From the IMG/VR virus record IMGVR_UViG_3300009061_000331, positions 1-18,093 of that record: a DNA stretch of 18,093 nt. One strand, written 5' to 3'. The notes below the pieces were generated by a model, which did no database searches, was not told the DNA's origin, and saw only the letters and a list, made by a program, of their open reading frames with translations. Positions within the stretch are counted from its first letter, which is position 1, and each line of letters starts with the position of its first letter. The position numbers were made by a program, and so were the translations under genes. This document shows positions 1 through 18,093 of the stretch, piece after piece. This DNA is from a virus.

Positions 1-123
1 CTTGCCACTTTTCCAATGTGGCACACATTCTAAAGCAATCGGGACATTTTCAGTATTTTTCTGGGATTCGGCTTTATAATAATTAATAAATTTATTTCTG
101 AATTCTATTCTTTCTTCTTTTGA
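1..123. repeat. Terminal redundancy, copy 1: identical to 17971-18093. Read as a circular-closure overlap giving a unit length of 17,970 bp.
   Basis: Base-for-base comparison of the two window ends gives 123/123 identity. A minus-strand ORF reads through the join without a stop. Confidence 0.95.
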
Positions 124-480
124 TAATAATAATAATAAATTACTGAATATGTGGATATGAAACCCTCTACTACCTGTTGAATAACAATTATAACTTATAC
201 CTTCATTTTTTAAACTAATACAAACTGTATTAACTCGTTCTTTTAATTGTTCAAATGTTTCGTTATTAAAAGGGTCAAAGTCTAAAACTATTTCATTTTT
301 TAATAATGTTCTATGTGTTGCTTTATCTAGTTCTTCTTCTGTTGCGTTTAAATAATAAACCCATTTAGTGAAACCTTTAGAGCCGTCTGATTTAATATAA
401 TTAGTAAATATTCTAAAATTGGTCTGTTGCTTGCCTATGAAATAATACAATTCTCCAAGTATCCTATTAGTTTTATTCAT
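1..480 (-). CDS. Compact archaeo-eukaryotic primase (AEP)/PrimPol-type protein, ~167 aa. Codons 1-160 are here; the last 7 codons and the stop lie at 17970-17947 across the circular join.
   Basis: Not in the supplied ORF track because it runs off the window edge. Hand translation from ATG 480-478: MNKTNRILGELYYFIGKQQTNFRIFTNYIKSDGSKGFTKWVYYLNATEEELDKATHRTLLKNEIVLDFDPFNNETFEQLKERVNTVCISLKNEGISYNCYSTGSRGFHIHIFSNLLLLLSKEERIEFRNKFINYYKAESQKNTENVPIALECVPHWKSGK, then NKTRCYF-stop after the join. AEP-like motifs: VLDFD (motif I, DxD), STGSRGFHIHIF (motif II, sGxGxH), VPHWKSGK (motif III-like). The ATG overlaps the TGA of the upstream RHH gene (ATGA). Confidence 0.8.
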   Translation of the reverse strand, partial: MNKTNRILGELYYFIGKQQTNFRIFTNYIKSDGSKGFTKWVYYLNATEEELDKATHRTLLKNEIVLDFDPFNNETFEQLKERVNTVCISLKNEGISYNCYSTGSRGFHIHIFSNLLLLLSKEERIEFRNKFINYYKAESQKNTENVPIALECVPHWKSGK

Positions 481-599
481 TTTTGTTTTGCTATTAATAG
501 TAATCTTTTTATTAAATCATCAAATGTTTCACTTTTCTTTCCAAACTCTAAAAGATCAGTATGTGTTTCAATAGATATTTTTATTATTTTTTCACTCAT
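477..599 (-). CDS. Small ribbon-helix-helix (CopG/Arc-like) DNA-binding protein, 40 aa; first gene of the leftward replication operon.
   Basis: Hand translation: MSEKIIKISIETHTDLLEFGKKSETFDDLIKRLLLIAKQK. It has a short N-terminal beta-strand segment followed by two helix-like segments, typical RHH size. GAGGT lies 8 nt upstream of the ATG. Its stop overlaps the PrimPol start. Confidence 0.55.
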   Translation of the reverse strand: MSEKIIKISIETHTDLLEFGKKSETFDDLIKRLLLIAKQK

Positions 600-647
600 T
601 ATATAAAACCTCAGTATAATTTCTTATTACTGTCTTATATTCATTCA

Positions 648-655
648 TATATAAA
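648..655 (-). promoter_or_regulatory. Archaeal-type TATA box (TTTATATA on the minus strand) for the leftward RHH-PrimPol-helicase operon.
   Basis: Plus strand reads tatataaa at 648-655, preceded on the minus strand by the A-rich tract ACAAAAAC. It sits ~50 nt upstream of ATG 599, with the GAGGT SD between them. Confidence 0.4.
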
Positions 656-677
656 GTTTTTGTTTTTTTTGTCTTCT

Positions 678-707
678 GCTTAAAACTTTTAAGCAAAGAT
701 TAAAATA
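678..707. promoter_or_regulatory. Operator-like element: perfect palindrome GCTTAAAA-C-TTTTAAGC (678-694) overlapping copy 1 (684-707) of a 24-nt repeat shared with 11704-11727.
   Basis: AACTTTTAAGCAAAGATTAAAATA is identical at both loci. Each copy lies 20-28 nt upstream (minus-strand sense) of a TTTATATA box. Confidence 0.5.
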
Positions 708-717
708 TTTAAGATTC

Positions 718-819: not shown

Positions 820-845
820 CGGTAATGTTTATGAAAGCTTATTTT

Positions 846-915: not shown

Positions 916-1107
916 ATGAGTTTTATTAAAGCAATAATGGGTTTAACTGTATCAGTTATCGTTACTACTACTGTTTTAGTACCAACTATCAAAGATGTGA
1001 ATGATGATGGTTATACTAGCGCAGAGAAATCTATGGTCGTTTTAGCTTCGTTAATAGCAATCATAGGTTTAGTATACGGTATTGGTAGTGCTTTCGGAAT
1101 GATGTAA
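916..1107 (+). CDS. 63-aa protein of two hydrophobic helices. Candidate major virion protein, resembling spindle-shaped-virus major capsid proteins.
   Basis: Hydrophobic helices at about residues 5-24 and 41-61, separated by the charged loop KDVNDDGYTSAEK. It is the first gene after the strongest-looking promoter, has a good SD, and is followed by a hairpin + T-tract. Confidence 0.45.
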   Translation: MSFIKAIMGLTVSVIVTTTVLVPTIKDVNDDGYTSAEKSMVVLASLIAIIGLVYGIGSAFGMM

Positions 1108-1137
1108 ACCAGTGTTTATAATCAGGTATAGCAAAAA

Positions 1138-1177
1138 GGTTAAAGGTAACTTTAACCAACCCTTTTATTTTTTTTGT
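1138..1177 (+). terminator. Intrinsic terminator/attenuator after the 63-aa gene.
   Basis: Perfect stem GGTTAAAG(1138-1145)-GTAA-CTTTAACC(1150-1157), followed by TTTTATTTTTTTT (1163-1177). Confidence 0.6.
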
Positions 1178-1213
1178 TAGATTAACTAAGATTCATTGAG
1201 GGTATAAAAAAAA

Positions 1214-1624
1214 ATGATAATAACATTATGGATAACATTATTAATTCTTTCTTTCTTATTAATTATAGTAGGTTACAAATTTAGTGATACAAGTGTTAGT
1301 GATATATTAATAATTGTAGGTTGGGCTTTTGTTTGTCTATTAGGAATAGTTCTTTTAAGTAATGCTTTAGAATTTAAAACTGGTGAAACAACAATTGAGA
1401 CTTATACTTATAATCCAAATAATACAACAGATACAATAACGAAAGTTACAAGTAATGTATATACACCTTTTGTACAAGAAGGTTCAGGAGCTTTAAAGAA
1501 AGCTACAGATACTCACGTTTGGGGATTTTTTTTAATGCTTAGTGGCTTATTTGGTAGTATTTTATTTTGGTTTGATAGAAAAGCTTACGGTAAAAGATTT
1601 AACGAGGTTAGATATGAGGAATAA
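1214..1624 (+). CDS. Membrane protein, 136 aa, ~3 predicted TM helices.
   Basis: ORF track. Two N-terminal hydrophobic helices and one near the C-terminus. GAGGGT lies upstream. Confidence 0.6.
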   Translation: MIITLWITLLILSFLLIIVGYKFSDTSVSDILIIVGWAFVCLLGIVLLSNALEFKTGETTIETYTYNPNNTTDTITKVTSNVYTPFVQEGSGALKKATDTHVWGFFLMLSGLFGSILFWFDRKAYGKRFNEVRYEE

Positions 1625-1757
1625 AAAGAATAATAAAAACAATCGTCTTATGAAAATAAAAATATGGGATGATAGTGGTAAACCAGTATTTAAAGATAAA
1701 TGCAAAGCTAAAGACTTAAGTAAAAGTTTTGGTAATATATTAAAGAAGTTTAATTAA
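1614..1757 (+). CDS. Small basic protein, 47 aa (MRNKKNNKNNRLMKIKIWDDSGKPVF...).
   Basis: In-frame ATG at 1614 with GAGGT (1604-1608) 5 nt upstream. The longer 1542 start would overlap the previous gene by 83 nt and has no SD. Confidence 0.45.
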   Translation: MRNKKNNKNNRLMKIKIWDDSGKPVFKDKCKAKDLSKSFGNILKKFN

Positions 1758-1758
1758 T

Positions 1759-4700
1759 ATGGTCAGTGAACAATATAAAGCTTATTTAAAGACGGATAGA
1801 GGAAAAACAGCACAGAAAGCTAAGATCGAACATTTAGAACGTGGTAAAAAACAAGCTAAGAGTAAATCTTCTAAGAAAAGAATACAAAAAAAAATAGATG
1901 AAGAAAAAAGATTAAAAAAAGAAGTTACACCTATTACTCCTAAATCTTATATTGTTGATGGTAAAAAAGTTAGTAAGGCTCAGTATGAGCAAAGCGTTAT
2001 TGATAAGTCTAAGAAACTTAAAGAGGGTGAGAAACTTGTAGCTAAAACTACTATGTATAATAGACAATATCAAAAAAAAGAACAACCTAAAACTGTTAAA
2101 GGTGTTGATGTAAAAAAAGAACAACCTAGGACATGGCAAGAAACAGAAGATTTTAAACAAAAAAAAGAAACATGGCAAGAATATTACGATCGTAAATATA
2201 AATTAAAAAACAAACCTACCCAGACTTTACAACCTATTATCAATAACAAGGGGCAAATTATAGGATATAAAGACACTTCTACTAAAAAAAGTGTTTTAAT
2301 ACCTAAAGGAAAAGAAGTTACAGAATCGGCTTTATTAAAAGTTGATAAAAGTAGAGCTGTTAGTAAAGAAATAGAGAAAAAAAACAAACAAACTGATAAA
2401 ATAAAAAATTTAACAAGTTCTGTTACTATTCCAACCCAAAAAGGTAATTTTATGTTTTATCCAGGGTATTTTAGAGATTACCAAAATTTCGCTAATAAAA
2501 AAATTCAACAATCTAAATCTATTCTAGTTAAATCTTTATTTGGTGCTTCTAAATTAGTAATAGGTGTTGCAGAGCCGATTCTAGATACACCATATTATGC
2601 TACAAAATTAATTACTACTACTGGCAAGAATATTATTCCAATACTATCAGATCTAAAAAAAGAAGGATCCAGATTTATAACTTTATCTAATAAAAAAGAT
2701 GATAGTTTTAGTTTAAGCATTTCAAAAGCACTAAAAGATAAGAAAAATGTAAAATCTGTAAAAAATATAATAAGTAATAAAGTTTCAGATACAGTTTTAA
2801 CAACTTCTATTTTAGCAGGTGATTTTTCAAGAGATGTAAAAAAATCTTTTCAAGAAGATCCTTTATATGCTGGTGGGTTTACTACTGGATTATTATATGG
2901 TGGTAAGATTCTTAACAGTGCCAGTGAATTTTTTTCTAAAACAATCGTAAGTACACAGTCTAAATTAGATAAAATGTTACCTTCAAGACCCTATTATGTT
3001 GAAAAATTACCAGAAGGTTTTGAAGTTCATAAAGGAGAATTTGTTCAAGATTTATTAAAATATAAAGGTGAATCTTTTGAACGTGGAGGAAAAGTATTTG
3101 GGGTTAGAAGGGTACAAGAATTTGAACCTAAAAAACTATTACAAGATCCTTTAGAACAAAGTTCAGCCTTTATTGATAAATTAAAAGGTAAAAAACCAGG
3201 TCAAATAAAATATTTTGATTCTGTAGGTCAAGACATTTTATTAAGGGATGTTCCCAGTGAATTTGCAACACCTAAAACAGAGTTATTAATACCAAATCAA
3301 GGAACACAAACTGTTGCAAGTGTTACCCCAGATAGTAAATTCTTAGTAGAAGGATCTAAAAAGGGTGGATATACCAGTATAAGTGGAGGTGGTCAAGAAT
3401 TAGAAACTATTCAAGGTAGAGCTGGTGTTGGTGGTGGAGAATTAGGACAGTTTTTTAGCGTCCCAACAAGTAAAGATATAGCAGGAGTTAAGAAAGGAAC
3501 TCCTCAAGTTTATACTTATTATAGTGGGGTTACAGGTTCAAGTGACTATACAGAAAAACTTCCTTTAAAATTTACTTTAAAGAAACCTAAACCAGGAGTA
3601 ATTTTCCAACAAGAGAATATTAATGTTCCTATAACAACAAAAAAAGGTTATGAGGAATTAGCTCAAGATTTAGCAGGTTATACTGAACCTAGTACTTTTC
3701 AATTAAGTGCTTCAACTATTAAAGGTGTAAGATCAGAGTTAGAAGTTATCAAAAGTCCTCAGACTTATACAACCTTAACAAAAACAACAGATATAAACGT
3801 ACCAGGATATTCTAAAGGTTTTAATATATTTTATGGTAGGAATGTACCTTTAACAAAAAAAGGTTACCATGAAGCTTTAGATGCTAACATTAAATTTTTA
3901 GAAAATCGTATAACTGAAGTTAAAAATATTATTAAGACTTCACCAGAACTTGAAAGTAAAGGTAATATTATAATTAAACGTGAATTAAGAAATATTGAAA
4001 ATATTAAATTGGCTCAACAAGGTAAAAAATACAAAAATGTTCCTAATTTAGATTCATCAAGTAAAGAGGCATATAATAAGTTTGAGGATTTAGGCTTAAG
4101 TCCACAAAATTCACCAAGTTATAATTATGTGACACCTAGTGATTTAATTAGTAGTAATAAACCCATTATTAGTGGTGTAGCTATTACTGTTTCAAAATTA
4201 TCAGCAGATAAAGAAGAAGTTATTTTTAGCGATTCAAGTAGTAGTCCTAGTACTAAACCAAGTAGTAGTCCTAGTATTAAACCAAGTAGTAGTAATAATA
4301 ATAATTTAAATATTTCTTCTATTAGTTCTAATATTATTTCTAGTAAAGTTATTAGTACTAAATCAAGTAGTAGTCCTAGTACTAAACCAAGTAGTAGTCC
4401 TAGTATTAAACCAAGTAGTAGTCCTAGTATTAAACCAAGTAGTAGTCCTAGTATTAAACCAAGTAGTAGTTCTAGTATTATTCCTAGTATAATTGAAAGT
4501 CAGATACCTCGTGCGTCATTATTTCCACCATTTAAGAAAAGTAATAATAAATTTTCCACTGGTTTTGGTGTTGAAGTTCGTAAGAAAGGTAAGTTTAGAC
4601 CTATTTTTGGGTCATTTCGTACAAAAAAAGAAGCTACTAGATTCGGTATGTTTAAAGTTGGTACAACTGCACGTGCAAGTTTTAGAGTAGTTGATAAGAA

Positions 4701-4875
4701 AACTGGTATTAGAAGAAAATTTAGAGGATCAGGTAAACCTTTAGATTTTTATAAAAAAGGTAATGTTTTCATAGAGAAACGTGGTCGTCGTATTAAAAGT
4801 CGTGGTGAAGTTCGTGAAATTAGTTTAAAAGGTGTAAGAAGTCAAAGAAAAGGGAAAAAGTTTAAAATGTATTAG
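1759..4875 (+). CDS. Large virion-associated-like protein, 1038 aa: Lys-rich N-terminus, central region, Ser/Pro repeat linker, strongly basic C-terminal domain.
   Basis: Long uninterrupted ORF in AT-rich DNA. N-terminal ~230 aa are K/E/Q-rich. SSSPS[T/I]KP repeats span roughly residues 826-909. The C-terminal ~120 aa are R/K-rich (RKKGKFRPIFGSFRTKKEATRFG...KRGRRIKSRGEVREISLKGVRSQRKGKKFKMY). I recognise no family. Confidence 0.75.
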   Translation: MVSEQYKAYLKTDRGKTAQKAKIEHLERGKKQAKSKSSKKRIQKKIDEEKRLKKEVTPITPKSYIVDGKKVSKAQYEQSVIDKSKKLKEGEKLVAKTTMYNRQYQKKEQPKTVKGVDVKKEQPRTWQETEDFKQKKETWQEYYDRKYKLKNKPTQTLQPIINNKGQIIGYKDTSTKKSVLIPKGKEVTESALLKVDKSRAVSKEIEKKNKQTDKIKNLTSSVTIPTQKGNFMFYPGYFRDYQNFANKKIQQSKSILVKSLFGASKLVIGVAEPILDTPYYATKLITTTGKNIIPILSDLKKEGSRFITLSNKKDDSFSLSISKALKDKKNVKSVKNIISNKVSDTVLTTSILAGDFSRDVKKSFQEDPLYAGGFTTGLLYGGKILNSASEFFSKTIVSTQSKLDKMLPSRPYYVEKLPEGFEVHKGEFVQDLLKYKGESFERGGKVFGVRRVQEFEPKKLLQDPLEQSSAFIDKLKGKKPGQIKYFDSVGQDILLRDVPSEFATPKTELLIPNQGTQTVASVTPDSKFLVEGSKKGGYTSISGGGQELETIQGRAGVGGGELGQFFSVPTSKDIAGVKKGTPQVYTYYSGVTGSSDYTEKLPLKFTLKKPKPGVIFQQENINVPITTKKGYEELAQDLAGYTEPSTFQLSASTIKGVRSELEVIKSPQTYTTLTKTTDINVPGYSKGFNIFYGRNVPLTKKGYHEALDANIKFLENRITEVKNIIKTSPELESKGNIIIKRELRNIENIKLAQQGKKYKNVPNLDSSSKEAYNKFEDLGLSPQNSPSYNYVTPSDLISSNKPIISGVAITVSKLSADKEEVIFSDSSSSPSTKPSSSPSIKPSSSNNNNLNISSISSNIISSKVISTKSSSSPSTKPSSSPSIKPSSSPSIKPSSSPSIKPSSSSSIIPSIIESQIPRASLFPPFKKSNNKFSTGFGVEVRKKGKFRPIFGSFRTKKEATRFGMFKVGTTARASFRVVDKKTGIRRKFRGSGKPLDFYKKGNVFIEKRGRRIKSRGEVREISLKGVRSQRKGKKFKMY
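4234..4485 (+). repeat. In-frame 24-nt tandem repeats (AGTAGTAGTCCTAGTAYTAAACCA, encoding SSSPS[T/I]KP) in two blocks, 4237-4293 and 4366-4485.
   Basis: Units are identical at nucleotide level. The 60-nt segment 4234-4293 recurs exactly at 4363-4422. The last unit (4462-4485) is degenerate. Confidence 0.9.
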
Positions 4876-4885
4876 GTGATTAAAA

Positions 4886-5158
4886 ATTAACACAAAAAAA
4901 GAATTAAAAATAAAGTTAAAAACTGATAAAATAAGAAAGGAAAATAAAAGGTTATCAGCTAAAAATAAAATTCGTTCTGATTTGTATAAAGCTAAACAAA
5001 GAAGAAGGATTCTGAAACAAAAGATTAATAAACGTAGATATAATAATATCAATAAAGCTATTAAACTTGTTTCTAAAGAGATAAAAAAAAATAAATCTAA
5101 TAAATCATCTAATAAAAAAAGAGAAAAACCTAAAGGAATGTGGGGTGAATTATATTAA
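4886..5158 (+). CDS. Candidate unlisted gene for a ~90-aa very basic protein with no canonical start codon (possible ATT start).
   Basis: The frame is open for 92 sense codons, 4880-5155, with the stop at 5156-5158, in an otherwise tightly packed operon. AGGTGAT (4874-4880) lies 5 nt before ATT 4886. The stop is 1 nt before the next ATG (5160). Hand translation: NTKKELKIKLKTDKIRKENKRLSAKNKIRSDLYKAKQRRRILKQKINKRRYNNINKAIKLVSKEIKKNKSNKSSNKKREKPKGMWGELY. Confidence 0.4.
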   Translation: MNTKKELKIKLKTDKIRKENKRLSAKNKIRSDLYKAKQRRRILKQKINKRRYNNINKAIKLVSKEIKKNKSNKSSNKKREKPKGMWGELY

Positions 5159-5159
5159 G

Positions 5160-5387
5160 ATGAATAAAAAAGGTAATACTTTTGTATTATTTTTTTGGAT
5201 ATTAACATTTATACCATTTTGGGTTTATTTCTTCGGACCTGTACTTAGTGAATGGGGTAAACGTGCTATTATTGAGAATAATATGATAGGTATAGAAGCT
5301 TTTCTATATGGAAACCTTAATCTAGCAATATTCTTTTTTTTATTGTTAGTAATGTTTGGTGTTGGATTTGTAGGTGATAGAAGATGA
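5160..5387 (+). CDS. Small membrane protein, ~75 aa, 2 TM helices.
   Basis: ORF track frame. I prefer ATG 5160 over GTG 5145, which lies inside the SD-like GGGGTGA. ATT 5154 is also possible. The stop overlaps the next start (ATGA at 5384). Confidence 0.6.
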   Translation: MNKKGNTFVLFFWILTFIPFWVYFFGPVLSEWGKRAIIENNMIGIEAFLYGNLNLAIFFFLLLVMFGVGFVGDRR

Positions 5388-8300
5388 ATAAAAATAATAT
5401 TCTTTTTTCAATAATTGTAATTTTAATAACATTATTAAGTATTGGTTTAGTTAATGCTGTACCAACTGATGGAGTTAGTTTTTATCCTTTTGATGAGGGT
5501 TCTGGTTCTACTCTTGGTGATAATTGGGGTAGTAATGATGGTTCTATTACCAGTGATGATGTTGATATTTGGAGTGGTATTGTGCCTACTTTTGCTGATG
5601 GTGTTACAAGTCCTGATTATAGTTTAAGTGGTAATGGTGAGGATTATGTTGATTTGGGATTTACTCCTGATACTGACGATTTCAGTATTGCTGGTTGGGT
5701 TAGGTTTAATAGTGTTGCTTCTTTTCAAGAAATTTTTACAACAGTTCAAACATCAACTAACAGAGATGGTGTTATGTTAACTCTTCACGATGAAGTCGGT
5801 TGGAGAATGGGTTTTTATAATGATAATGATGCTTTTATTAGTGTTACTGAGGGAAGTGTTAGTTCTTCTGTAGATACTTGGTATAATATTGTTCTTAATT
5901 ATTATGATAATGGAACTGCTAAACTTTGGGTAAATAATGCGAGTATGATTAGTGAATATAGTGCTACTTCTTTGAGCACTCACGATAGTAATTTACATTT
6001 AATGCAGGATTATGTGACTATTACTGGAGATACTCTTGATGGTTATGAAAGTTATTTTCAAGTTTTTAGTGAACCTTTAACAGAAGAAGAAATTAGCAAT
6101 TTTTATAAAAGTGGAAGAGTAGATGTTACTTCTTATTTTGATATTATTAATACTAATTCTATTAATAATATGACAGCTTATTTTAATAGTACATCATATT
6201 CAACAACAAATGGAACTATTGTTACAGGGATAGAAAGTACAGAAGAATTTAATATTATTATGGAATCTAACCAAGGTTATTATTTCAATAATACTTATAC
6301 TAACTATAATATTAGTGAAGATTTAGAAGTAACTTTTTATGAATATCCATATGTTTCAACAAATATTAATAATTTTACTGCTACTATTGACGGTGTTGAT
6401 TATATAACAACTAATGGCTTGGTTTATGTTCCTTTTAATTCTAGCAAAACCATTAATATTACAACTAATCAAGATTATTTTAGTACTAGCTTCGTTCATG
6501 ATTTTAGCGATTTAACAGATATTAATAAGACTTTGGTTGAGTACCCCTATGTTAATGTTAGCAATTCGTGGACTGGTGAAACAATAGAATCTTTTAATAT
6601 TAGTTTTATAGAGAATGATTATGAATTAATTAATAGTGCTTGTGTTTATTATGGTGGTACTTGGCTTAGTGAGTATAAAGAATGTGAGAGTGTAAGTTCA
6701 ATGACTATTACTGAGTCTGTTTGTGACCTAATGGGTGGCACTTATCACGAGGGTAGTAGTTGCAGAAACTCAGATCCTGGAGATTACTGTGTAAGTTCTG
6801 TAGTTTATTGGTGTTCATTTGAAGAAATATCAGAAGAGTATTCCAGTTACGTTACTTATTTGACAACAAACGGTAAAATATACGTTCCAATCAATCAAAG
6901 TGTAGATTTAACAATAAGAGCAGAAGGATATTTTAATACTAGTTTCGTTCATGATTTTACAGACAGTAATGATTTAGAAACAGAACTGAATCAAAGCATA
7001 ATCAGAATCGAAATAACAGAAAAATATTCAGGAAACAACATTACTAATTGGGTTTTATTAAATGGTTCAGAAGTCTTAATTAATACTACGGATAATTATG
7101 ATATAGTTAATCTAGCAGCAGGACAATATAACGATTTAACATTAAAAAGTAATATCGCAAGTTTTAGCGATAGAATGATAGATGGATTTAATGTCTCAAG
7201 TCTAGATAATAAAACAATAAGTTATGATTTTTTGCCTACTGAGCTAAGTATTATTGCTAAAGACTTTTTAACAAATACAACCATAAATAATTTTAGCGTT
7301 AGTATAAATAGTCTTAATAGTTCTCATTCTGGAACTTATAGTATAACAACTGGTGAATTAGTTTTTGGTGTTATAAATAATGATGATTATAGTGTAATTA
7401 TTGATGCTATTGGTTATTCTTTATTTAACAATACTGATATAATAAACATTAACGGTAACACTAATAAAACTTTTAGGTTGTTCACCGAGAATAGTATATT
7501 CTTTGAAGTATTTAATGAACAGACAGGCGAACCTATAACAGATTTAATTGATATAGTTATGGATGGTGATTATAAGAGTTATTCTTTTAATATTACAAAT
7601 AGTACTCATTACATAGATGATATTATTGATGGTGTTTATAGTATAAAAGCTAGTTATAATGATAGTATTAAATATTATAGTGTTACTGTTGGAGATAGAT
7701 CATATAGTGATGTTAACATATTCTTTGGTTCAAATTATAATAATGTTAGTTTTAGTTTTTTAGGTGGTAATACTGGTAATATACTAGAAGATGTTTATTT
7801 TACTATGAGTAGATACATTAATGGTAGTTTAATGGTTGTTGGTTCGGGTATTAGCAATATATTAGGACATGTTAATATGCCTTATGTAGAAGGTACTTAC
7901 TATAAATTTATAGCAAGTAAAGATGGTTATGCTCCTAAAGAGTTTACTCTTGATCCTATATTTGAAGATAAATATTATGTTAGAATGTATGTAAGTAGTG
8001 AAGGTGAATTAATATCTGATGGTGTTAGTGTAAATTATAATCATGATATATTCGTTTATGGTGAGAATAATTTTAGTATTATTTTTAATAGTCCATTAGG
8101 TACTTTAACAGATTACAGTTATACATTGGTTTACCCTGGTAGTAATTCCTCTGATAATGGTATTAACGCTAATGGTGAAATATTTGATTTCGCATTTAAT
8201 ATTACTAATGTAGATATAGGTTCATACGTTAAATTAATCTATAATTATAATACAACTATTAGTGATCAAGTTACTAAAACTATATTTTTCCCTGTTACAA

Positions 8301-8563: not shown

Positions 8564-8564
8564 G

Positions 8565-9017: not shown

Positions 9018-9021
9018 TAAT

Positions 9022-11683: not shown

Positions 11684-11703
11684 TGTTTCTATAATAAACC
11701 TAG

Positions 11704-11727
11704 AACTTTTAAGCAAAGATTAAAATA
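11704..11727. promoter_or_regulatory. Copy 2 of the 24-nt repeat AACTTTTAAGCAAAGATTAAAATA.
   Basis: Identical to 684-707. Lies 20 nt upstream (minus-strand sense) of the TATA box at 11683-11676. Confidence 0.5.
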
Positions 11728-11730
11728 AAT

Positions 11731-11797
11731 AAAAAAAAGTAGTTAAGGGGAGAATTTTATATATATGTCAGAAAATAGATGTGTAATCCCCCTTAAC
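11731..11797 (-). terminator. Inverted repeat + T8 tract downstream of the NTPase gene (minus strand).
   Basis: GTTAAGGGG (11742-11750) pairs with CCCCTTAAC (11789-11797) across a 38-nt loop. On the minus strand it is followed by TTTTTTTT (11738-11731). Confidence 0.4.
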
Positions 11798-11845: not shown

Positions 11846-12748
11846 TTAATAACCAACACGAATGCTACTATCACTAGTAACTTTGTTTTTAATATATCCT
11901 TTAAATTCTTCGATCTGTTGTTCATTAAAAAATCTCTTATTTTTATAACGTTTGGTCGGTATAACTTTATGTTTTTTACATGCTTTATTAATCCATTCAA
12001 CACTCATGCCTATTTGTTTACTGATAGCTTTAACATCTTTTAAACCTTCTAATTGTGTAACACTTTTATGTAAAACATCCAGTTTAGAATTTGTACTAAA
12101 TCCCTCAAGTTGAATACTACGTTTAGAACTCAAATCTTTACATCTAAATTTAAAGTTCGGTCTAGTTTTAACATAAGCTTTACCAACAACAGGGTTTCTT
12201 TTACCATCCTTTAACGATTGTAATAAATAATGAGCTCTATATACACTATAAGCCCATACAACATTATGAGTTCTAAATTTATCACCTACATGGAAAAGAC
12301 CTCTTACAATACCATTATTAAATAAATCGTTATCTAAAGTCTTAATACAAGGCATAACCATAACAATAATAATTTTAAACGCTCTACATACTTCAAATAC
12401 CCTATTTAATTGAGCATTAAATTTGGTTAAAGCACCTCTACGGTTGAAATCACCTGCTTCATCATATACAATAACATGTAAACCTTTTTCATGACAAATT
12501 AATAACTTCTCTAATAATTGATCTCCACCTAAAGCTAACTGATATTTAAAGTCTATTGGTTTACCATTTAAGAAACTTGCACACTGAACTGCCAGGGTAG
12601 TTTTCCCTTTACCTAACCCACCATCTATTAATAAAACACTTGCTAATTTACGTTCAAACACTCTGTCTTTCCACATCTGTAAGTTATCAGTAACTATTAA
12701 ATTCCCAAATGGTGTGCCTGTTGATTTATAATATTTACATATTTCCAT
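11846..12748 (-). CDS. P-loop NTPase with a C-terminal excisionase/MerR-like HTH, ~300 aa.
   Basis: Walker A: LLIDGGLGKGKTTLAVQ. Walker B: LHVIVYDEAGDF. C-terminus: VKAISKQIGMSVEWINKACKKHKVIPTKRYKNKRFFNEQQIEEF. ATG 12748 lies 5 nt after AGGTG; the track start at 12763 is TTG. Confidence 0.75.
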   Translation of the reverse strand: MEICKYYKSTGTPFGNLIVTDNLQMWKDRVFERKLASVLLIDGGLGKGKTTLAVQCASFLNGKPIDFKYQLALGGDQLLEKLLICHEKGLHVIVYDEAGDFNRRGALTKFNAQLNRVFEVCRAFKIIIVMVMPCIKTLDNDLFNNGIVRGLFHVGDKFRTHNVVWAYSVYRAHYLLQSLKDGKRNPVVGKAYVKTRPNFKFRCKDLSSKRSIQLEGFSTNSKLDVLHKSVTQLEGLKDVKAISKQIGMSVEWINKACKKHKVIPTKRYKNKRFFNEQQIEEFKGYIKNKVTSDSSIRVGY

Positions 12749-12756
12749 AATAACAC

Positions 12757-13248
12757 CTAACAATGATTAGCTATATTCTCATCTTCTAAACTTAAAGTAT
12801 CAATATTCTTTCTAGTATCCCATTTTAATAATCCCTTCTTGTCTAATATTATATTGATAACCCTGAAAGCTAATATAATATTTTCAGGATCATCACTATT
12901 ATATAACTCTCTTAATAAAAGTAAAAACTTTCTTTTACCAACTTCACCATTAAATTTTTTATCTATATTATGTTCTATGCCTACAGTATTAAAAGCTGAT
13001 CTAATTGTAGGTTGTTGTAACCTATTAAAAGAAGGTTCTAATTCTATTATTAACATCTTAAATTTAGATATAAGATCCTTCTTTATGTTACTATAAGTGT
13101 GTCTATTCTTCTTATTCTTACTATTATAATGATAATAATTAGTTAAAGCATCTAAAACATCATCTCTTTTTTGTAAAATATTAATCTTAAGTATCAAAGT
13201 GGGACTTTGACCTTGATATTCACCTATTAATCTATTATTATTCCCCAT
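12757..13248 (-). CDS. Hypothetical protein, 163 aa.
   Basis: ORF track. GGAGGA lies 9 nt upstream of the ATG. Confidence 0.6.
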   Translation of the reverse strand: MGNNNRLIGEYQGQSPTLILKINILQKRDDVLDALTNYYHYNSKNKKNRHTYSNIKKDLISKFKMLIIELEPSFNRLQQPTIRSAFNTVGIEHNIDKKFNGEVGKRKFLLLLRELYNSDDPENIILAFRVINIILDKKGLLKWDTRKNIDTLSLEDENIANHC

Positions 13249-13336: not shown

Positions 13337-13558
13337 CTACTTTTTGGGTAATTTTAGCCGCCATTTTACCGGAATGGACAATGTTGCATTTAAAATATCA
13401 AGTTCCTTAAGTTTAACCACTTGAAACCATATAGTCTCTTTACAACGAGGTTTACCATACAATTTTAATCCCTTATATATCTCATTTATAGTATAACTCT
13501 CGTTTGGTTTGATAATATGTTGTACCTTTAGCCATTCTAAAACAACCTTTTTACACAT
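13337..13558 (-). CDS. Winged-helix DNA-binding protein candidate, 73 aa.
   Basis: Pattern VLEWLKV...YTINEIYKGL...ETIWFQVVKLKELDILNA...VKWRL resembles helix-turn-helix plus a wing. AGGTGAT lies 3 nt upstream. Confidence 0.45.
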   Translation of the reverse strand: MCKKVVLEWLKVQHIIKPNESYTINEIYKGLKLYGKPRCKETIWFQVVKLKELDILNATLSIPVKWRLKLPKK

Positions 13559-13562
13559 CCTA

Positions 13563-14027
13563 TCACCTTTCTTGTTTAAATTTAGGTTTAATATTTAATC
13601 TTGTATTAAGTATCTCTTCTTTACTGAGTAAACGTTTCTTACCTTTATAGTTAATTATATCTTTAAGGTTAGCTTTAGTAGCTATCCAAAAAAACAATCT
13701 AGTTCTGAGACCTAAATCAATAATGATAAATATTAAACCTAAACCTATCAAAAAATAATTACTTGCATTTAATATCCTATCCCCACCTAAATAATAATTA
13801 ACAATATAATAACTAACTATACTAATACATATTAAAATAAAACCAAGATAAGAAGGTGCATGGGTAAATTTTACTTTACCCTCGCACTCATAAACTAATC
13901 TATCATCAAATGTATGTGTACTTTGTTTAAAATTAACCATTAAAGGACTATTTTTAAAACGTTTTGTATGTCCTTTAATATAATTTAAAGTTGCATCTGT
14001 CTTTTCTATAACATAACCAAATAACAT
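13563..14027 (-). CDS. Membrane protein, 154 aa, 2 central TM helices.
   Basis: ORF track. AGGTGAT lies upstream. Confidence 0.6.
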   Translation of the reverse strand: MLFGYVIEKTDATLNYIKGHTKRFKNSPLMVNFKQSTHTFDDRLVYECEGKVKFTHAPSYLGFILICISIVSYYIVNYYLGGDRILNASNYFLIGLGLIFIIIDLGLRTRLFFWIATKANLKDIINYKGKKRLLSKEEILNTRLNIKPKFKQER

Positions 14028-14040
14028 TTATATCACCTGA

Positions 14041-14616
14041 TTAGTTAATAACTGGTATCTCAGCAACTAATGTCTTAACATTATTTAAAATTGCTAAAAC
14101 CTGGTCGGCTAATAAACCATTACTATATATTATATAAAATATACCTAATAAAGTAACTCCACTCAATAATAAAATAATAATCTGAAATTGTTTCTCTTTA
14201 TTGTTATGTGGATCTGTTAATGCCCTTATAAGAAGGTTCTCTTGTTTTATAGCATCAAATCCAGCAACACCACATAAATTTGGTTTCATTAATATATTAC
14301 CTATCTCTGTATATCTAACGCAATTAACACCCCAACTACGAAAAATATAATCTTCAGCCATTTTTAACCTCTTAACCTTACTCTTATCCTTACCTGTGCT
14401 TGTTTTATCACTAACTATTAAATATCCATCAATGTGTTTGCCGACTACATGATAGTTTTGTATTGGATGGATAACCTCACATAATACCAAACCACCACGA
14501 CTTGCAACAACTTTAACTAATTTAAATAAAAATCCTCTTGTTATCCATTGTACCCAAACAATAGGAATAACTAATACTATTAAACATATAATAATCCAAA
14601 TAATAAATTCTTCCAT
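14041..14616 (-). CDS. Membrane protein, 191 aa, N- and C-terminal TM helices.
   Basis: ORF track. AGGAGGA lies upstream and overlaps the preceding stop. Confidence 0.6.
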   Translation of the reverse strand: MEEFIIWIIICLIVLVIPIVWVQWITRGFLFKLVKVVASRGGLVLCEVIHPIQNYHVVGKHIDGYLIVSDKTSTGKDKSKVKRLKMAEDYIFRSWGVNCVRYTEIGNILMKPNLCGVAGFDAIKQENLLIRALTDPHNNKEKQFQIIILLLSGVTLLGIFYIIYSNGLLADQVLAILNNVKTLVAEIPVIN

Positions 14617-14632
14617 TTTAATAAAAATCCTC

Positions 14633-15124
14633 CTATACCCTATTTATTGGTTGGTGAAAAATACCACCCTTCTTAACATTTTCAATCTTCTCATGATGTT
14701 CTCTTGTAAGAGTTTTCATGATATTCCTAAAAAAGCCATTATGACTCTGACTTAATTCTATCTTACTAGCAACTCGATTCATACAAACAACAAAAGCATT
14801 ATTATATCCCTCATTTAAAAAATCACCACCGAGTTTTAGATAATGATCACAATATTTAACTTCACTAGTTTTTAAATTACCTAAACGTAAATCTCTAGTG
14901 AACATTTGTAACTGTTGCCATATATCACTTTTTTCACTAACTAAAACATCACCTTCTTTTCTCTTTTCTATTCTTTGACTAATAGTATTTATCCTATTAA
15001 TGAATCCTTTATTAACTTCCTCATCACTACCCCATACTCCATTAGTAACGAGCATAGTAGCTTCTAAATTATTTTCAGGGTTCATAGAAGGACCGTTAAA
15101 TTCTTCTTCTCTTTGTTCAACCAT
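14633..15124 (-). CDS. Hypothetical soluble protein, 163 aa.
   Basis: ORF track frame. ATG 15124 follows GGAGGTG. The longer 15160 start has no SD. Confidence 0.6.
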   Translation of the reverse strand: MVEQREEEFNGPSMNPENNLEATMLVTNGVWGSDEEVNKGFINRINTISQRIEKRKEGDVLVSEKSDIWQQLQMFTRDLRLGNLKTSEVKYCDHYLKLGGDFLNEGYNNAFVVCMNRVASKIELSQSHNGFFRNIMKTLTREHHEKIENVKKGGIFHQPINRV

Positions 15125-15425
15125 ATAACACCTCCAACTCGTAGTCTTTATTAGGTTCACAATTATACTTCTTCATTTCTTTACGAATACCTAAAATTAA
15201 ATCTTCACAACTTTTAATGACTAATTTTCTTACTTCACCATTAGGTGTTCTATAATTACCTTCTTTTAACTTTAAAGAGAAAATTATTTGATTATTTTTC
15301 TCTTTTGTTTGAATAATAAACAGTTTTTTAAGCAAAAAAGGTACTTTACTATTTTTTTTTACACCAGTAACACCTTTATCACTTAAACTTTTAACTTTAA
15401 AACCTATAACTATTTTCTCTTCCAT
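15117..15425 (-). CDS. Hypothetical protein, 102 aa.
   Basis: ORF track. GGAGGT lies upstream. Its ATG overlaps the upstream TAA (TAATG). Confidence 0.6.
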   Translation of the reverse strand: MEEKIVIGFKVKSLSDKGVTGVKKNSKVPFLLKKLFIIQTKEKNNQIIFSLKLKEGNYRTPNGEVRKLVIKSCEDLILGIRKEMKKYNCEPNKDYELEVLYG

Positions 15426-15559
15426 TATACTAAAACCTCCATTATCCCAGCAATAAAACCAAATAAAAAAATTAAAAAATAGAAACTACCAACTATAAAA
15501 GATAATACTACACTTGTTTTTAACCAAAAACTTAAATCTTTAAATTTTATTTTACTCAT
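15425..15559 (-). CDS. Small single-TM protein, 44 aa (MSKIKFKDLSFWLKTSVVLSFIVGSFYFLIFLFGFIAGIMEVLV).
   Basis: Hand translation. ATGA overlap with the upstream gene and TAATG overlap with the downstream gene. Confidence 0.45.
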   Translation of the reverse strand: MSKIKFKDLSFWLKTSVVLSFIVGSFYFLIFLFGFIAGIMEVLV

Positions 15560-15996
15560 TCTTTATACCTCCAACCTTTATTATATAATAAATGGTTAAT
15601 AATAAATGCTAACACAAAAACTAAAATAAATATTATATTAAACCATTCCATTAAAAAAGTTGGTTTAACGCCAACACTCTCACCTTTATACATTAAAAAA
15701 CTTTGATACATATATTCAGGTACTTTTTCACAAAAAGATTCATGTCTATAATAATAATCACCGTTAATGTTACAAAAACTATAAAATTCATTTTCGCATA
15801 CTGGTTCATTACATTCTAAATAAAAATATGGTTCTCTTATATTACTAAACCCTGTATCACTCCATAATAAAATAAATAAAAATATCACAAAAACTAAAGC
15901 AATATTAAAAATTAGTTTATTAACCTTATATCCTTTACCCCATGTTTTAATATCAAACTTAGTTTCCCATTCCTTTATTTTTTTTAACCAATTCAT
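15556..15996 (-). CDS. Membrane protein, 146 aa, 2 TM flanking a Cys-containing loop.
   Basis: ORF track. Four Cys lie in LECNEPVCENEFYSFCNINGDYYYRHESFC. ATGA overlap with the upstream gene. Confidence 0.6.
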   Translation of the reverse strand: MNWLKKIKEWETKFDIKTWGKGYKVNKLIFNIALVFVIFLFILLWSDTGFSNIREPYFYLECNEPVCENEFYSFCNINGDYYYRHESFCEKVPEYMYQSFLMYKGESVGVKPTFLMEWFNIIFILVFVLAFIINHLLYNKGWRYKE

Positions 15997-16280
15997 GGCA
16001 ACCTTTTTCCCTCACCATTTACATATTGAGCAGAACTCATACTAACAATCATTAAGTTGCCCATATCTTGTTGTGAAAAGTTTTGAGTGTTCTTCCATTC
16101 ACCAGTAACTTTATCTAACCAACCTTTTTTAAAAGTTATACTCAAAAAAGGTTTACCTTCTTTTGTTTGGTTTTCCCATAAACTCGCCTGAATCATTCCT
16201 GACCTAAAAACCTTAACAGGTCTTTTAAACTCACTACTAGTTTTACTAGTTGTATTTAATTCATTGTTTGTTTTTTCCAT
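15993..16280 (-). CDS. Candidate PC4/YdbC-like single-stranded DNA-binding protein, 95 aa.
   Basis: VKVFRSGMIQASLWENQTKEGKPFLSITFKKGWLDKVTGEWKNTQNFSQQDMGNLMIV resembles the beta-beta-beta-helix PC4-like pattern. It lies in the replication operon. Confidence 0.4.
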   Translation of the reverse strand: MEKTNNELNTTSKTSSEFKRPVKVFRSGMIQASLWENQTKEGKPFLSITFKKGWLDKVTGEWKNTQNFSQQDMGNLMIVSMSSAQYVNGEGKRLP

Positions 16281-16283
16281 TTT

Positions 16284-16448
16284 TTATTTACTTCCTCTTA
16301 AATACCCTGACTCGTCAAAATTAATTAATTTTAACTGAGTTAATGTGTTACTTAATATTTCTAAAGCTTTTTCTTTACTATTCATATTAATAATATCAAT
16401 AGCGTACTCTAAACCCTCGATTTTCCCATCACTAAACCTATCAAACAT
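16284..16448 (-). CDS. Hypothetical protein, 54 aa (MFDRFSDGKIEGLEYAIDIINMNSKEKALEILSNTLTQLKLINFDESGYLRGSK).
   Basis: Hand translation. AGGTGAT lies 4 nt upstream of ATG 16448. It fills the gap between the helicase and the PC4-like gene. Confidence 0.45.
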   Translation of the reverse strand: MFDRFSDGKIEGLEYAIDIINMNSKEKALEILSNTLTQLKLINFDESGYLRGSK

Positions 16449-16453
16449 TTTAA

Positions 16454-17950
16454 TCACCTATAATTATTCATACTAAGATCTCCGACCTCTATATATTTAC
16501 TAAGATTATCATCATCTAAAGATCCTTTTATGAATTCCATGTTTAACCAACAATGCTCTTGGCTCTTAGAATCAAACCCAATATTAATATTAACCCTTTT
16601 ACTTAATATACCTTTAGTCTGTAAAAACTTAAGTATATCTCTATCGCTAACAATATCTAAAGCTCTATGGTCACAAAACTCTGAGTAAAGTGTTCTAACA
16701 TCGCTTTTAATACATTTACAATTCTTACTAAACTTTAAGTATTCATCAAAGAAAACAATAAAGCTATTAGAATCTCTTAACCATTCATTTCTAGTCTCTT
16801 CGGTTGTTTTCTCATTGCTAAACTTTTTATTCTTAAACAATCTATCTAAACCATCTAAAGACCAATTTAGCAACCCACTCATTTCAATTGGATTATTTAA
16901 TTTTTCGATAATATTAATAATTCTAATACCATATCTATCTTTACTCTTATCATCAATATTATTATAAATATCTTTACTTACAAATGTTTTATTAAAATTT
17001 AAAACATTCCATCTTCTAAAAAATCCATCAGTAATGTCATAAGTAGGTGGTCTGTCATTACAATTAAAAATTAGTTTAGCATGGTTAGTAAATTGAATAC
17101 TGGTCTTAAATTTACGACTAGCATTAATAGTATCACGACCTGTTAGTTCTTTAAACCTATCAGTATTAACAATAGCACTTTTAGATAACTCACCAGTTAA
17201 ATTAGCAAATTTCCCATGCAAATTAACAATCTCAAAACTGTCATGTTTCTCTAATACCTTATATGTAATATTGCTAACATTATCACAACCTAAAAAAAGT
17301 TCTATTAATTCAAGAGTTTTACTTTTACCATTACTACCATTACCTCTAAATAAAAAAGCTTTCTCTAAGAAATTATCACGATAAAGACAATATCCTATAA
17401 GCTCCTGCATACCTTTAACATCGGTATCATTTAAAGTGTTAGAAAAAAAAGACTTAATCTTTTTACAATCAGTAACATTATTATAATTAGCATTAAGTTT
17501 AGTGAAAAATATTTTTTTATGACTAAATTTTTCTAATTTACGAGTTTTAACATTTAATATACCGTTTAATACACAAATCTCATCCTTATTATAATTATTA
17601 AAGAATTTATCATGATCTATATAATTGTCAGCAATAACTTTATTTATTACTTGATTAACAATATAAGCACTATAAGCGTCTTTTAATAATCGACGAGTTA
17701 CTTCTTTAATATAACTTTTACCATTTGGGATATATATACCATTTTTATACATCCATATTTCCTCTTTATCATCATCACGAATACTATAAAAATAATTAAA
17801 GGTATCTAAATAAATTACTAGTTCCTCACTTACTTTATCATAATCTTTTTGTAATATTAATCTAACAGCTCTATCTTCAATTTCTTTCTCTTCCTTCTTT
17901 ATAGCTTGTAAAAAATCAGTATTTATATTTTTATTTATATCAGTAATCAA
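16454..17950 (-). CDS. D5/P4-family superfamily-3 replicative helicase (phage/plasmid primase C-terminal type), ~498 aa.
   Basis: Walker A context: AFLFRGNGSNGKSKTLELIELFLG. Also LIFNCNDRP and GFFRRWNVLNFNKTF, typical of D5-like helicases. The probable start, TTG 17950, lies 6 nt after GAGGTG and overlaps the PrimPol stop (TTGA). The track start, GTG 17959, lies inside the SD. Confidence 0.85.
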   Translation of the reverse strand: MITDINKNINTDFLQAIKKEEKEIEDRAVRLILQKDYDKVSEELVIYLDTFNYFYSIRDDDKEEIWMYKNGIYIPNGKSYIKEVTRRLLKDAYSAYIVNQVINKVIADNYIDHDKFFNNYNKDEICVLNGILNVKTRKLEKFSHKKIFFTKLNANYNNVTDCKKIKSFFSNTLNDTDVKGMQELIGYCLYRDNFLEKAFLFRGNGSNGKSKTLELIELFLGCDNVSNITYKVLEKHDSFEIVNLHGKFANLTGELSKSAIVNTDRFKELTGRDTINASRKFKTSIQFTNHAKLIFNCNDRPPTYDITDGFFRRWNVLNFNKTFVSKDIYNNIDDKSKDRYGIRIINIIEKLNNPIEMSGLLNWSLDGLDRLFKNKKFSNEKTTEETRNEWLRDSNSFIVFFDEYLKFSKNCKCIKSDVRTLYSEFCDHRALDIVSDRDILKFLQTKGILSKRVNINIGFDSKSQEHCWLNMEFIKGSLDDDNLSKYIEVGDLSMNNYR

Positions 17951-18093
17951 AAATAACACCTCGTCTTATTCTTGCCACTTTTCCAATGTGGCACACATTC
18001 TAAAGCAATCGGGACATTTTCAGTATTTTTCTGGGATTCGGCTTTATAATAATTAATAAATTTATTTCTGAATTCTATTCTTTCTTCTTTTGA
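17947..18093 (-). CDS. 3' end of the PrimPol gene: 17971-18093 duplicates 1-123, and the unique last 7 codons + TGA lie at 17970-17947.
   Basis: The reading frame continues from position 1 across the join: AAT AAG ACG AGG TGT TAT TTT TGA. Confidence 0.8.
   Translation of the reverse strand, partial: SKEERIEFRNKFINYYKAESQKNTENVPIALECVPHWKSGKNKTRCYF
17971..18093. repeat. Terminal redundancy, copy 2 (identical to 1-123).
   Basis: 123/123 identity with the window start. Confidence 0.95.

Follow-up and report, generated by a model that had tools for sequence, protein, structure and literature searches.

The window analysed here is the whole of IMG/VR virus record IMGVR_UViG_3300009061_000331, a stretch of 18,093 nt that holds a small circular element with two divergent blocks of genes. 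The first 123 nt of the window recur exactly at its other end (positions 1-123 carry the same letters as 17971-18093). Hence, this direct repeat is an assembly overlap, and the element is a circular unit of 17,970 bp rather than 18,093. A 19,207-bp MEGAHIT contig from another sample (L001, ENA ERZ27257105; related contigs are referred to below by such L numbers) is colinear with the window and 99.6-99.8% identical to it, crosses the window junction uninterrupted, wraps round and overlaps itself. Thus, the complete circle of about 18 kb proposed in a first-pass annotation is borne out by the end overlap and by L001, with its size corrected. Pieces of the same element also occur in IMG 3300026251, a metagenome of unrestored solar salterns (PMC8774927), in IMG 3300007537, likewise from the unrestored South Bay salterns, and in SRR6056297. 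We consider it likely that the window holds the whole genome, a circle of double-stranded DNA, of a virus whose family has not been described.

The genome has a GC content of 27% and a coding density of 90%, and is organised in two arms. The rightward arm (916-9297, + strand) encodes structural-looking proteins, and the leftward arm (- strand) carries genes for replication, regulation and recombination together with a P-loop ATPase. GC skew flips sign at ~600-900 and at ~9400, tracking the two divergently transcribed arms, and a terminator-like hairpin followed by a T-run (9399-9416, +) occupies the convergent gap at the second of these flips. The gene layout that the first-pass annotation gave for both halves agrees with the list of open reading frames (ORFs), with transmembrane (TM) prediction and with Pfam; that ORF list lacked two genes at or near the junction, encoding a 167-aa prim-pol and a 40-aa ribbon-helix-helix (RHH)-like protein, which are seen as ORFs on the doubled circle. 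A 22.4-kb contig of an NCBI metagenome-assembled genome (MAG), L006 (GCA_054000775.1), is fully syntenic with the window, with 50-92% amino-acid identity per gene. Since all genes are conserved in L006, we conclude that they are real genes and not chance ORFs. We found no tRNA in the window or its relatives, and hence no tRNA-type att clue; an Rfam scan of the whole window returned no match.

The hallmark gene of the family (11846-12763, -) encodes a 305-aa P-loop ATPase with a C-terminal winged-helix/helix-turn-helix (HTH) domain. Its AlphaFold2 (AF2) model, built with 30 homologues (pLDDT 88), is globular, with a P-loop domain followed by the winged helix; one weak hydropathy segment (residues 122-140) was not taken as a TM helix. 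We compared a family profile of 226 sequences with individual viral proteins using hhalign, which was run pairwise and does not give a database-wide ranking. The profile matched His1 ORF16 with a probability of 94.3% over 223 columns that comprise the P-loop, the motifs after Walker B and the C-terminal HTH, and the His1 record itself annotates an HTH there. It matched SSV1 B251 with 86.7% over 122 columns, and aligned with PAV1 ORF375 over the P-loop only. Among the controls, HRPV-1 VP8 gave 0.9%, M13 pI 17% over 55 columns, and the element's own superfamily 3 (SF3) helicase 0.6%. Compared with each other as single sequences, His1 ORF16 and SSV1 B251 reach 20%; thus, the family profile, at 94% to one and 87% to the other, bridges both ATPases. 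A Foldseek search of BFVD with the ATPase model placed ORF286 of Acidianus two-tailed virus (ATV) at the top (6e-7) and a Nitrosopumilus spindle-shaped virus protein at 6e-5; generic ATPases of the A32, phi6 P4 and Zot kinds came next. The PDB yielded generic RecA/AAA folds only by Foldseek and P-loops only by a sequence search with the profile, and tblastn of the ATPase found no match in 50,697 phage and archaeal-virus records, which include Nitrosopumilaceae spindle viruses, or in 72,556 plasmids. We conclude that profile comparison identifies the ATPase as homologous to the morphogenesis ATPase of spindle viruses (His1 ORF16 / SSV1 B251). The 163-aa protein encoded directly upstream (12757-13248, -), whose gene is syntenic in L006, L011, L012, L015 and L022-L024, is probably a partner of the ATPase.

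The first gene of the rightward arm (916-1107, +) is preceded by a strong Shine-Dalgarno (SD) motif and encodes a 63-aa protein that is the putative major capsid protein (MCP). TM prediction and an AF2 model (pLDDT 82) describe an alpha-helical hairpin of two TM helices, at residues 2-26 and 35-59, and this modelled fold is the MCP architecture of spindle-shaped viruses. The gene is the most conserved of the family, with 92% identity in L006 and 82-100% in relatives where the ATPase is 53-59% identical. With hhalign, the family profile gave a weak match to His1 VP21 (35.6% probability, score 23.1), in which the alignment begins at the end of helix 1, crosses the loop and enters helix 2, and a weak match to ORF5, a likely capsid protein, of a Nitrosopumilaceae spindle virus (41.7%). 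These two were the best among the small membrane proteins tested; SSV1 VP1 gave 0.3%, HRPV-1 VP3 gave 0.2%, and each of five further small membrane proteins from the window stayed below 0.5% in the same comparison. Neither 300 full shuffles nor 300 that kept the hydrophobic segments intact reached the score of 23.1 against VP21 (maximum 20.9). The match rose to this level only once the divergent L012 and L025 homologues had joined the alignment: a first profile of near-identical sequences scored 16.9 against a shuffle maximum of 19.5, which is not significant. Foldseek with the model returned E values above 1 and was uninformative, as expected for a hairpin, and tblastn of the L025 homologue found nothing in the phage and archaeal-virus records. 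We regard homology between the 63-aa protein and known spindle-virus capsid proteins as suggestive on these profile scores, not as established.

At the position of the 63-aa gene, three relatives (L008 552-815, L020 5786-6049 and L028 3984-4524) have a gene for an 87-89-aa two-TM protein with a longer loop, which is duplicated in tandem in L028. Similarity between this protein and the 63-aa family is not significant (hhalign 4-12%); the protein could be a replacement for the capsid protein or a strongly diverged form of it, or one of a paralogous MCP pair as in fuselloviruses.

Further along the rightward arm lies the gene for a 1059-aa, secreted, adhesin-like protein (5384-8563, +) with a signal peptide, beta-sandwich repeats and a C-terminal TM anchor. 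A LamG/ConA-like domain spans residues ~85-238 (nt ~5636-6097). When residues 25-260 were scanned alone, PF13385 (Laminin_G_3) matched over its full profile (E 1.4e-12, 48 bits); when the full-length protein was scanned against Pfam with hmmscan, LamG was not reported at E ≤ 0.1. The orthologues carry LamG as well, so the LamG assignment made in the first-pass annotation holds. As a lesson of method, long Asn/Ser/Thr-rich proteins of low-GC genomes are best scanned in segments. The protein also has weak CarboxypepD_reg-like matches, and it has no homology to SSV1 C792 or His1 ORF27.

N-X-S/T sequons are enriched in the 1059-aa protein, with 35 observed against 20.6 ± 3.7 expected (z 3.9). Across adhesin orthologues z ranges from 1.2 to 8.5, with four of five at 3.9 or above, while a reverse-motif control for the adhesins gave z between -1.4 and 0.8. 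The ATPase and the 1038-aa basic protein described below have no enrichment or a depletion; in the basic protein we counted 2 sequons against 7.6 expected. Enrichment confined to the exposed adhesins is the footprint that N-glycosylation would leave, and hence the 1059-aa protein is probably N-glycosylated. It is also the fastest-evolving large gene. Identities between L006 and the window are 92% for the 63-aa protein, 86% for the resolvase, 81% for the helicase, 79% for the ATPase and 66% for the 1038-aa protein, and fall to 50% for the LamG protein. A conserved coat combined with a fast-evolving receptor binder is the pattern expected of a virus.

Another large structural-looking product of the genome is a 1038-aa basic protein (1759-4875, +; pI 9.9) with no TM segment and no signal peptide. 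Its composition changes along its length, from a Lys-rich N-terminus through Ser/Pro-rich 8-aa tandem repeats (nt 4217-4525) to a conserved basic C-terminal domain, the last ~110-120 residues of which are 37-50% identical in L008, L010, L023 and L025. Searches against Pfam, PHROG and NCBIfam, with the whole protein or in segments, returned no match. We infer that this is an internal, DNA-associated virion protein. The repeats, encoded by a 24-nt tandem unit on the + strand, read SSSPS(I/T)KP; L006 fails to align in this region, the main protein alignment covering 810 of 1038 residues, and L025 has a Gly/Ser-rich stretch in its place. The repeat region is probably a flexible linker of variable length.

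The ATPase defines a large family. HMMER searches of 1.84 billion representatives gave 224 clusters at 50% identity with E ≤ 1e-30, and 537 with E ≤ 1e-10. All 90 ATPase homologues found through a word index lie on contigs no longer than 24 kb; many of these contigs measure 17-19 kb and several are circular. L012, L015 and L016 (each about 16.9 kb) have terminal overlaps of 127-141 nt; hence, these are also complete circles. A search of IMG/VR with the ATPase alignment identified four relatives, of which three come from Ace Lake in Antarctica (IMG 3300035698), a metagenome with a published source (PMC9324843); scans of IMG/VR with single helicase and adhesin sequences found no match. The GC content of the family ranges from 24 to 41%. 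Pfam searches with 54 proteins of the relatives returned recombinases and weak Zn-ribbon and TrmB hints only, and in the literature we found no description of this virus family or of spindle viruses of Woesearchaeota/Pacearchaeales.

Comparison of the relatives separates the genome into a constant and a varying part. At ATPase identities of 32-57%, the module that stays constant comprises the hairpin protein, the three-TM protein, the basic protein (at least its C-terminal domain), the two-TM protein and the LamG protein with its two followers, and it also keeps the 163-aa protein, the ATPase and several unknowns. The part that varies is replication and recombination: L012, L015 and L016 are without prim-pol and helicase, and L015, L016, L011, L020 and L028 have a tyrosine recombinase in place of the serine recombinase. 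L012, L015 and L016 are complete circles without any recognisable replication protein.

The replication genes of the element lie at the junction. The prim-pol, of the archaeo-eukaryotic primase superfamily (AEP), is a 167-aa protein encoded on the - strand from 480 to 1 and, across the junction, from 17970 to 17947. Its best NCBIfam match is PriS (E 1.3e-5), then LigD-pol (2.1e-5); its orthologues in L006, L008 and L020 are 68-77% identical, and orthologues carry weak Pfam LigD_Prim-Pol marks. Downstream follows a 501-aa SF3 replicative helicase (16454-17959, -) of the D5-like/P4-primase C-terminal type, which matches PF19263 (DUF5906, E 1.5e-15), PF08706 (D5_N), TIGR01613 (E 4e-48) and the PHROG DNA primase (E 4e-66). 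Its best matches among described viruses are a Halorubrum tailed virus (29%), bacterial phages (28-31%) and Nitrosopumilaceae spindle viruses (26%). The database-called helicase gene starts three codons later than the ORF in the window. Two small proteins of 95 and 57 aa (15993-16457, -) accompany the helicase, the former 57-63% identical in L006, L008 and L020. The leftward replication operon begins with the gene for the 40-aa RHH-like regulator (477-599, -), 92% identical in L020.

Beside these genes, in the gap between the arms, lies a GC-rich (about 47-50%) hairpin of ~108 nt (715-822, +) with a minimum free energy of -53 kcal/mol (z -6.5). We found this hairpin in six of six relatives that have prim-pol and helicase; it is absent from L012 and L015, which lack both. 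Its homologues, all on the - strand, include L006 9146-9262, L008 918-1033, L020 6151-6266, L028 4680-4810 and L029 9055-9172. Compensatory changes are present at 17 of 29 base pairs, a number reached by none of 500 shuffles and compared with 4-8 in slid controls. The hairpin contains a conserved TTTTCCACC stretch, and its G-U pairs slightly favour the + strand. It is a candidate replication origin, or a candidate structured RNA, of the prim-pol/helicase cassette.

Adjacent to the hairpin is a promoter/operator block (640-712) with a TATA-like CTTATATATAAA, the palindrome GCTTAAAAnTTTTAAGC and AAAGATTAAAA. Columns of the block are invariant across five divergent relatives, and the motif recurs in every relative. 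A second operator copy (11701-11732), 91% identical to 681-712, lies upstream of a small operon for a 58-aa TM protein (11474-11650) and a 53-aa RHH-like protein (11312-11473; operon 11312-11650, -) that is kept in L006, L008 and L020. TTTATATA sits 50-57 nt upstream of the start of the 40-aa RHH gene and 26-34 nt upstream of the start at 11650. The two-site arrangement is repeated in L008, L012 and L015, and the motif GCTTAAAAnTTTTAAGC(AAAGATTAAAA) is also present in L020. The motif thus precedes both leftward operons, and across relatives it is better conserved than coding sequence. The RHH reading of the 40-aa and 53-aa proteins was made by eye; the palindromic motif is probably an operator for these small proteins.

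The recombinase of the element is a 160-aa serine recombinase (10448-10930, -; PF00239 E 7e-45; PHROG integrase/invertase) with a catalytic domain and a short basic tail. Neither this protein nor the family's other serine recombinases have an HTH domain. It is 83-86% identical in L006 and L022-L024, although the ATPase is only 54-56% identical in L022-L024, which suggests recent exchange or unusual constraint. Serine recombinases are also encoded at L012 8455-8994, L010 1085-1657 (with a CxxC pair in the tail) and L025 9251-9800.

The remaining genes are mostly small. On the rightward arm, a 136-aa three-TM membrane protein (1214-1624, +) is 79% identical in L006 and 47-52% in L023/L024, and an 80-aa two-TM protein (5145-5387, +), directly 5' of the adhesin gene, is 78% identical in L006 and 56% in L023. 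The adhesin gene is always followed by that of a 153-aa protein with N- and C-terminal TM segments (8556-9017, +), as in L010 (37%), L011 and L025, and the arm ends with a 98-aa polytopic membrane protein (9001-9297, +). Two short ORFs encode very basic proteins: 1542-1757 (+; 71 aa, GTG start), which overlaps the 136-aa gene, and 4982-5158 (+; 58 aa, TTG start). Gene callers choose shorter versions of both (42-47 aa) in relatives, and their expression is uncertain. On the leftward arm, six conserved unknown genes (13337-15996, -; 73, 154, 191, 175, 102 and 146 aa) lie between the 163-aa gene and the 57-aa/95-aa pair. Three of the six products have TM segments, and identities are 51-75% in L006 and 27-51% in L022-L024; profile searches, NCBIfam included, returned no family match for the block.

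Several indirect signs bear on the host. The sequon enrichment, the integrase, the prim-pol, the promoter signals and the distribution of the virion module all point to an archaeon, which we consider likely. The tyrosine integrase of relatives scores 87.6 bits with archaeal XerA against 68.2 with XerC, and the prim-pol is PriS-like. Sigma-70-like sites occur at the level of chance (126 against 120 ± 11), and seven of 16 TTTAWATA motifs fall in the intergenic 10% of the genome, where their spacing from operon starts is plausible. Published reports of the ATPase/MCP module come solely from archaeal viruses and their satellites (10.1101/2025.02.15.638363; 10.1101/2021.07.29.453957). Most genes have, ahead of their start codon, an SD motif complementary to the 3' end of 16S rRNA.

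A scan of genome collections placed two relatives in MAGs. L011 (DRSY01000065.1, a 5-kb contig, GC 41%) is labelled Ca. Woesearchaeota, and L010 (JAAEQR010000050.1, a 14.5-kb contig, GC 34%) lies in a 'PVC group bacterium' MAG. These labels contradict each other; we therefore rejected binning as decisive for the host, and at least one of the two placements is probably a binning artefact. Nanobdellota genomes have a GC content of 26-42% (10.64898/2026.05.13.725050), which the 24-41% range of the family overlaps, a coincidence that is only circumstantial. A DPANN host is a reading that we put forward tentatively. The archaeal assignment of the first-pass annotation has gained indirect signs in the sequons, the XerA-like integrase and the Woesearchaeota bin, but no direct proof, and a PVC bin stands beside them; no clear bacterial host emerged.

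The interpretation of the element as a spindle-type archaeal virus has to be weighed against several observations. Its viral nature is read here from genes, and no integrated copy was seen. For the ATPase, homology is drawn from pairwise comparisons of profile and sequence and not from a search across databases. The 63-aa protein resembles known capsid proteins weakly (35-42% probability), its Foldseek search was empty, and hairpins of two helices are a generic fold. SSV1, His1 and PAV1 have no match to any protein of the element other than the ATPase and, for PAV1, the LamG fold. SD motifs and the helicase family are found in both domains, and the PVC-group placement of L010 also speaks against an archaeal virus.

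Given that the virion is read from genes, the element might instead be a plasmid with vesicle-mediated or contact-dependent transfer, or a satellite that borrows a helper virus. Comparable elements exist, namely the haloarchaeal plasmid-vesicle elements and the small ATPase/MCP-bearing circles that accompany haloarchaeal spindle viruses, and spindle-virus ATPase and MCP genes do occur on satellites or plasmids (10.1101/2025.02.15.638363). The replication module, with its separate prim-pol and SF3 helicase and its candidate hairpin origin, is plasmid-like, and only four family members are present in IMG/VR. Nevertheless, we think a plasmid or satellite unlikely. About half of the genome is a conserved module of hairpin, membrane, basic and adhesin proteins and ATPase, the order of which is kept down to an ATPase identity of 32%, and a swappable replication module joined to a constant structural-looking one is a viral pattern. 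Described satellites are 2.7-9 kb long and have only the ATPase and/or MCP (10.1101/2025.02.15.638363), whereas this element adds an adhesin; the 72,556 plasmids gave no ATPase match.

A membrane-containing, non-tailed phage or a plasmid of a low-GC bacterium, such as a member of Patescibacteria/candidate phyla radiation (CPR) or the PVC group, would account for the placement of L010, for the SD motifs ahead of most genes, for the related SF3 helicases in many phages and for a serine recombinase family that is mostly bacterial. Binning of a 14-kb extrachromosomal contig is unreliable, however, and the other binned relative is with Woesearchaeota. The ATPase matches those of archaeal spindle viruses and not M13 pI, the sequon enrichment is family-wide and specific to the exposed protein, integrase and prim-pol are closest to XerA and PriS, and sigma-70-like promoters show no excess. 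Nor has a spindle-type MCP/ATPase module been observed in bacteria (10.1101/2021.07.29.453957). A bacterial element is therefore rather improbable. An archaeal virus with a pleomorphic, pleolipovirus-like membrane-vesicle virion is in our estimation very improbable: virion shape too is read from genes, the genome encodes many small membrane proteins, and the adhesin has the signal peptide and C-terminal TM anchor of pleolipovirus spikes, but His1 ORF26 and ORF27, which are structural, are annotated in their record with the same two features, and both the ATPase and the hairpin protein match their His1/SSV1 counterparts better than HRPV-1 VP8 and VP3.

Taking the element as a spindle-type archaeal virus, we can propose a life cycle. 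Replication would start at the GC-rich hairpin at 715-822, which co-occurs with the prim-pol/helicase module, and the RHH proteins would act on the twice-present palindromic operator, switching between leftward transcription of replication and regulation genes and rightward transcription of virion genes. The 63-aa hairpin protein would build up in the host membrane as the major capsid protein, the 1038-aa basic protein would accompany the DNA, and the ATPase with its 163-aa partner would drive assembly and genome loading at the membrane. The LamG protein would serve as an N-glycosylated, membrane-anchored, receptor-binding adhesin. Particles would bud without lysis, as in other spindle-shaped viruses, and the recombinase would resolve multimers or mediate integration. 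The host would most likely be a low-GC archaeon, possibly a DPANN archaeon (Nanobdellota/Woesearchaeota-like) of saline, anoxic waters.

Spindle-shaped viruses are specific to archaea and have been argued to be as old as the last common ancestor of archaea, an idea that is put to the test by every further host lineage with such viruses. Our widest reading, offered as a possibility that is still doubtful, is that the genome and its relatives (at least 224 ATPase clusters at 50% identity; circles of 17-22 kb) are the first recognised viruses of non-halophilic DPANN Nanobdellota (Woesearchaeales/Pacearchaeales-like), and form a new, globally distributed spindle-type family or higher taxon that is abundant in cold saline and anoxic waters, with an ATPase that bridges those of His1 and SSV1 and a covarying hairpin origin that travels with a swappable cassette. 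If the host is indeed DPANN, the family would give access to the viruses of a major part of archaeal diversity that is uncultured. The spindle type is a known kind, and similar metagenomic families are reported regularly; what is added here is the size of the family, a probable new host range, the bridging ATPase and the hairpin-bearing cassette. For a large family without a name in databases, with hundreds of ATPase clusters and occurrences in solar salterns and Ace Lake, the genome provides a complete reference, and the bridging profile is useful for finding more such viruses. The family combines a constant virion module with interchangeable cassettes for replication (prim-pol/helicase with its own hairpin, or none) and recombination (serine or tyrosine).

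Comparison with known systems places the element close to none of the described groups as a whole. Megablast of the whole genome against the 50,697 phage and archaeal-virus records and 72,556 plasmids found no match, and tblastn of the 1059-aa adhesin found none in the virus records. The novelty claimed in the first-pass annotation holds to the extent that no described relative was found in these collections; the element is, however, no singleton and belongs to a large metagenomic family. No ORF matched an HK97 or double-jelly-roll (DJR) capsid protein, portal, terminase or packaging ATPase in Pfam and PHROGs, at the sensitivity of profile-sequence searches, in agreement with the earlier reading, and we rejected Caudoviricetes and double-jelly-roll viruses on these grounds. 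An Inoviridae-like element was rejected on the low M13 pI score over 55 columns, a globular ATPase without a clear TM segment, and replication by prim-pol and SF3 helicase; profile searches returned no HUH replication-protein match. Pleolipoviridae were rejected on the VP8 and VP3 comparisons given above. Thus, of the likeness to 'spindle-shaped and pleomorphic' viruses proposed initially, the spindle part stands through the ATPase link to His1 and SSV1, and the pleolipovirus part is disfavoured.

The LamG adhesin had suggested a likeness to PAV1 and TPV1. These viruses share with the element large ConA-like/LamG proteins, each followed by a membrane protein of ~140-150 aa, a circular genome of ~18 kb, a P-loop ATPase and the lack of recognisable capsid genes. 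By BLASTP and hhalign, however, no PAV1 protein matches: ORF375 aligns over the P-loop only, and ORF121 against the 136-aa protein gives 0.9%. The likeness is therefore limited to the LamG fold, and we rejected membership of the PAV1/TPV1 group, with which no core protein beyond the ConA/LamG fold is shared. Archaeal plasmids of the pRN1 type are prim-pol/helicase replicons, and the element resembles them, compared by description only, in its AEP prim-pol, SF3 helicase and stem-loop beside the replication genes; unlike in these plasmids, prim-pol and helicase are separate genes here, and the replicon is joined to a ~9-kb structural-type module.

The signature of spindle-shaped viruses is a hydrophobic alpha-helical hairpin MCP and an AAA+ ATPase, with an adhesin (10.1101/2025.02.15.638363; 10.1101/2021.07.29.453957). 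His1 (Halspiviridae) and SSV1 (Fuselloviridae) share with the element a homologous morphogenesis ATPase, with the same P-loop and C-terminal HTH layout in ORF16, a small two-helix hydrophobic protein of 60-75 aa, weakly like VP21, a large secreted protein with a C-terminal anchor, and a similar genome size (17,970 bp, against 15.5 kb for SSV1 and 14.5 kb for His1). Beyond these features, hhalign of five small-protein families against SSV1, His1 and PAV1 ORFs of up to 400 aa gave nothing above 3%. Replication by prim-pol and SF3 helicase contrasts with the protein-primed family B polymerase of His1, and the serine recombinase with the integrase annotated in the SSV1 record; unlike both viruses, the element has a LamG adhesin, a 1038-aa basic protein and a GC content of 27%. 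Wyrdviridae and the viruses DNSV-1/2 of Nanohaloarchaeota are recognised by the same logic, from a hairpin MCP closest to that of His1, an adhesin, a TM-free ATPase, variable replication modules and a morphogenetic module with a set of conserved unknown genes, and have comparable genomes of 15-22 kb (10.1101/2021.07.29.453957; 10.1101/2025.02.15.638363). This last comparison was made by description; tblastn of the ATPase and of the L025 MCP homologue matched no record of the collection. Taken together, these likenesses and differences suggest that the element represents a new family-level lineage within the spindle-type archaeal viruses, outside Fuselloviridae, Halspiviridae and the PAV1 group.

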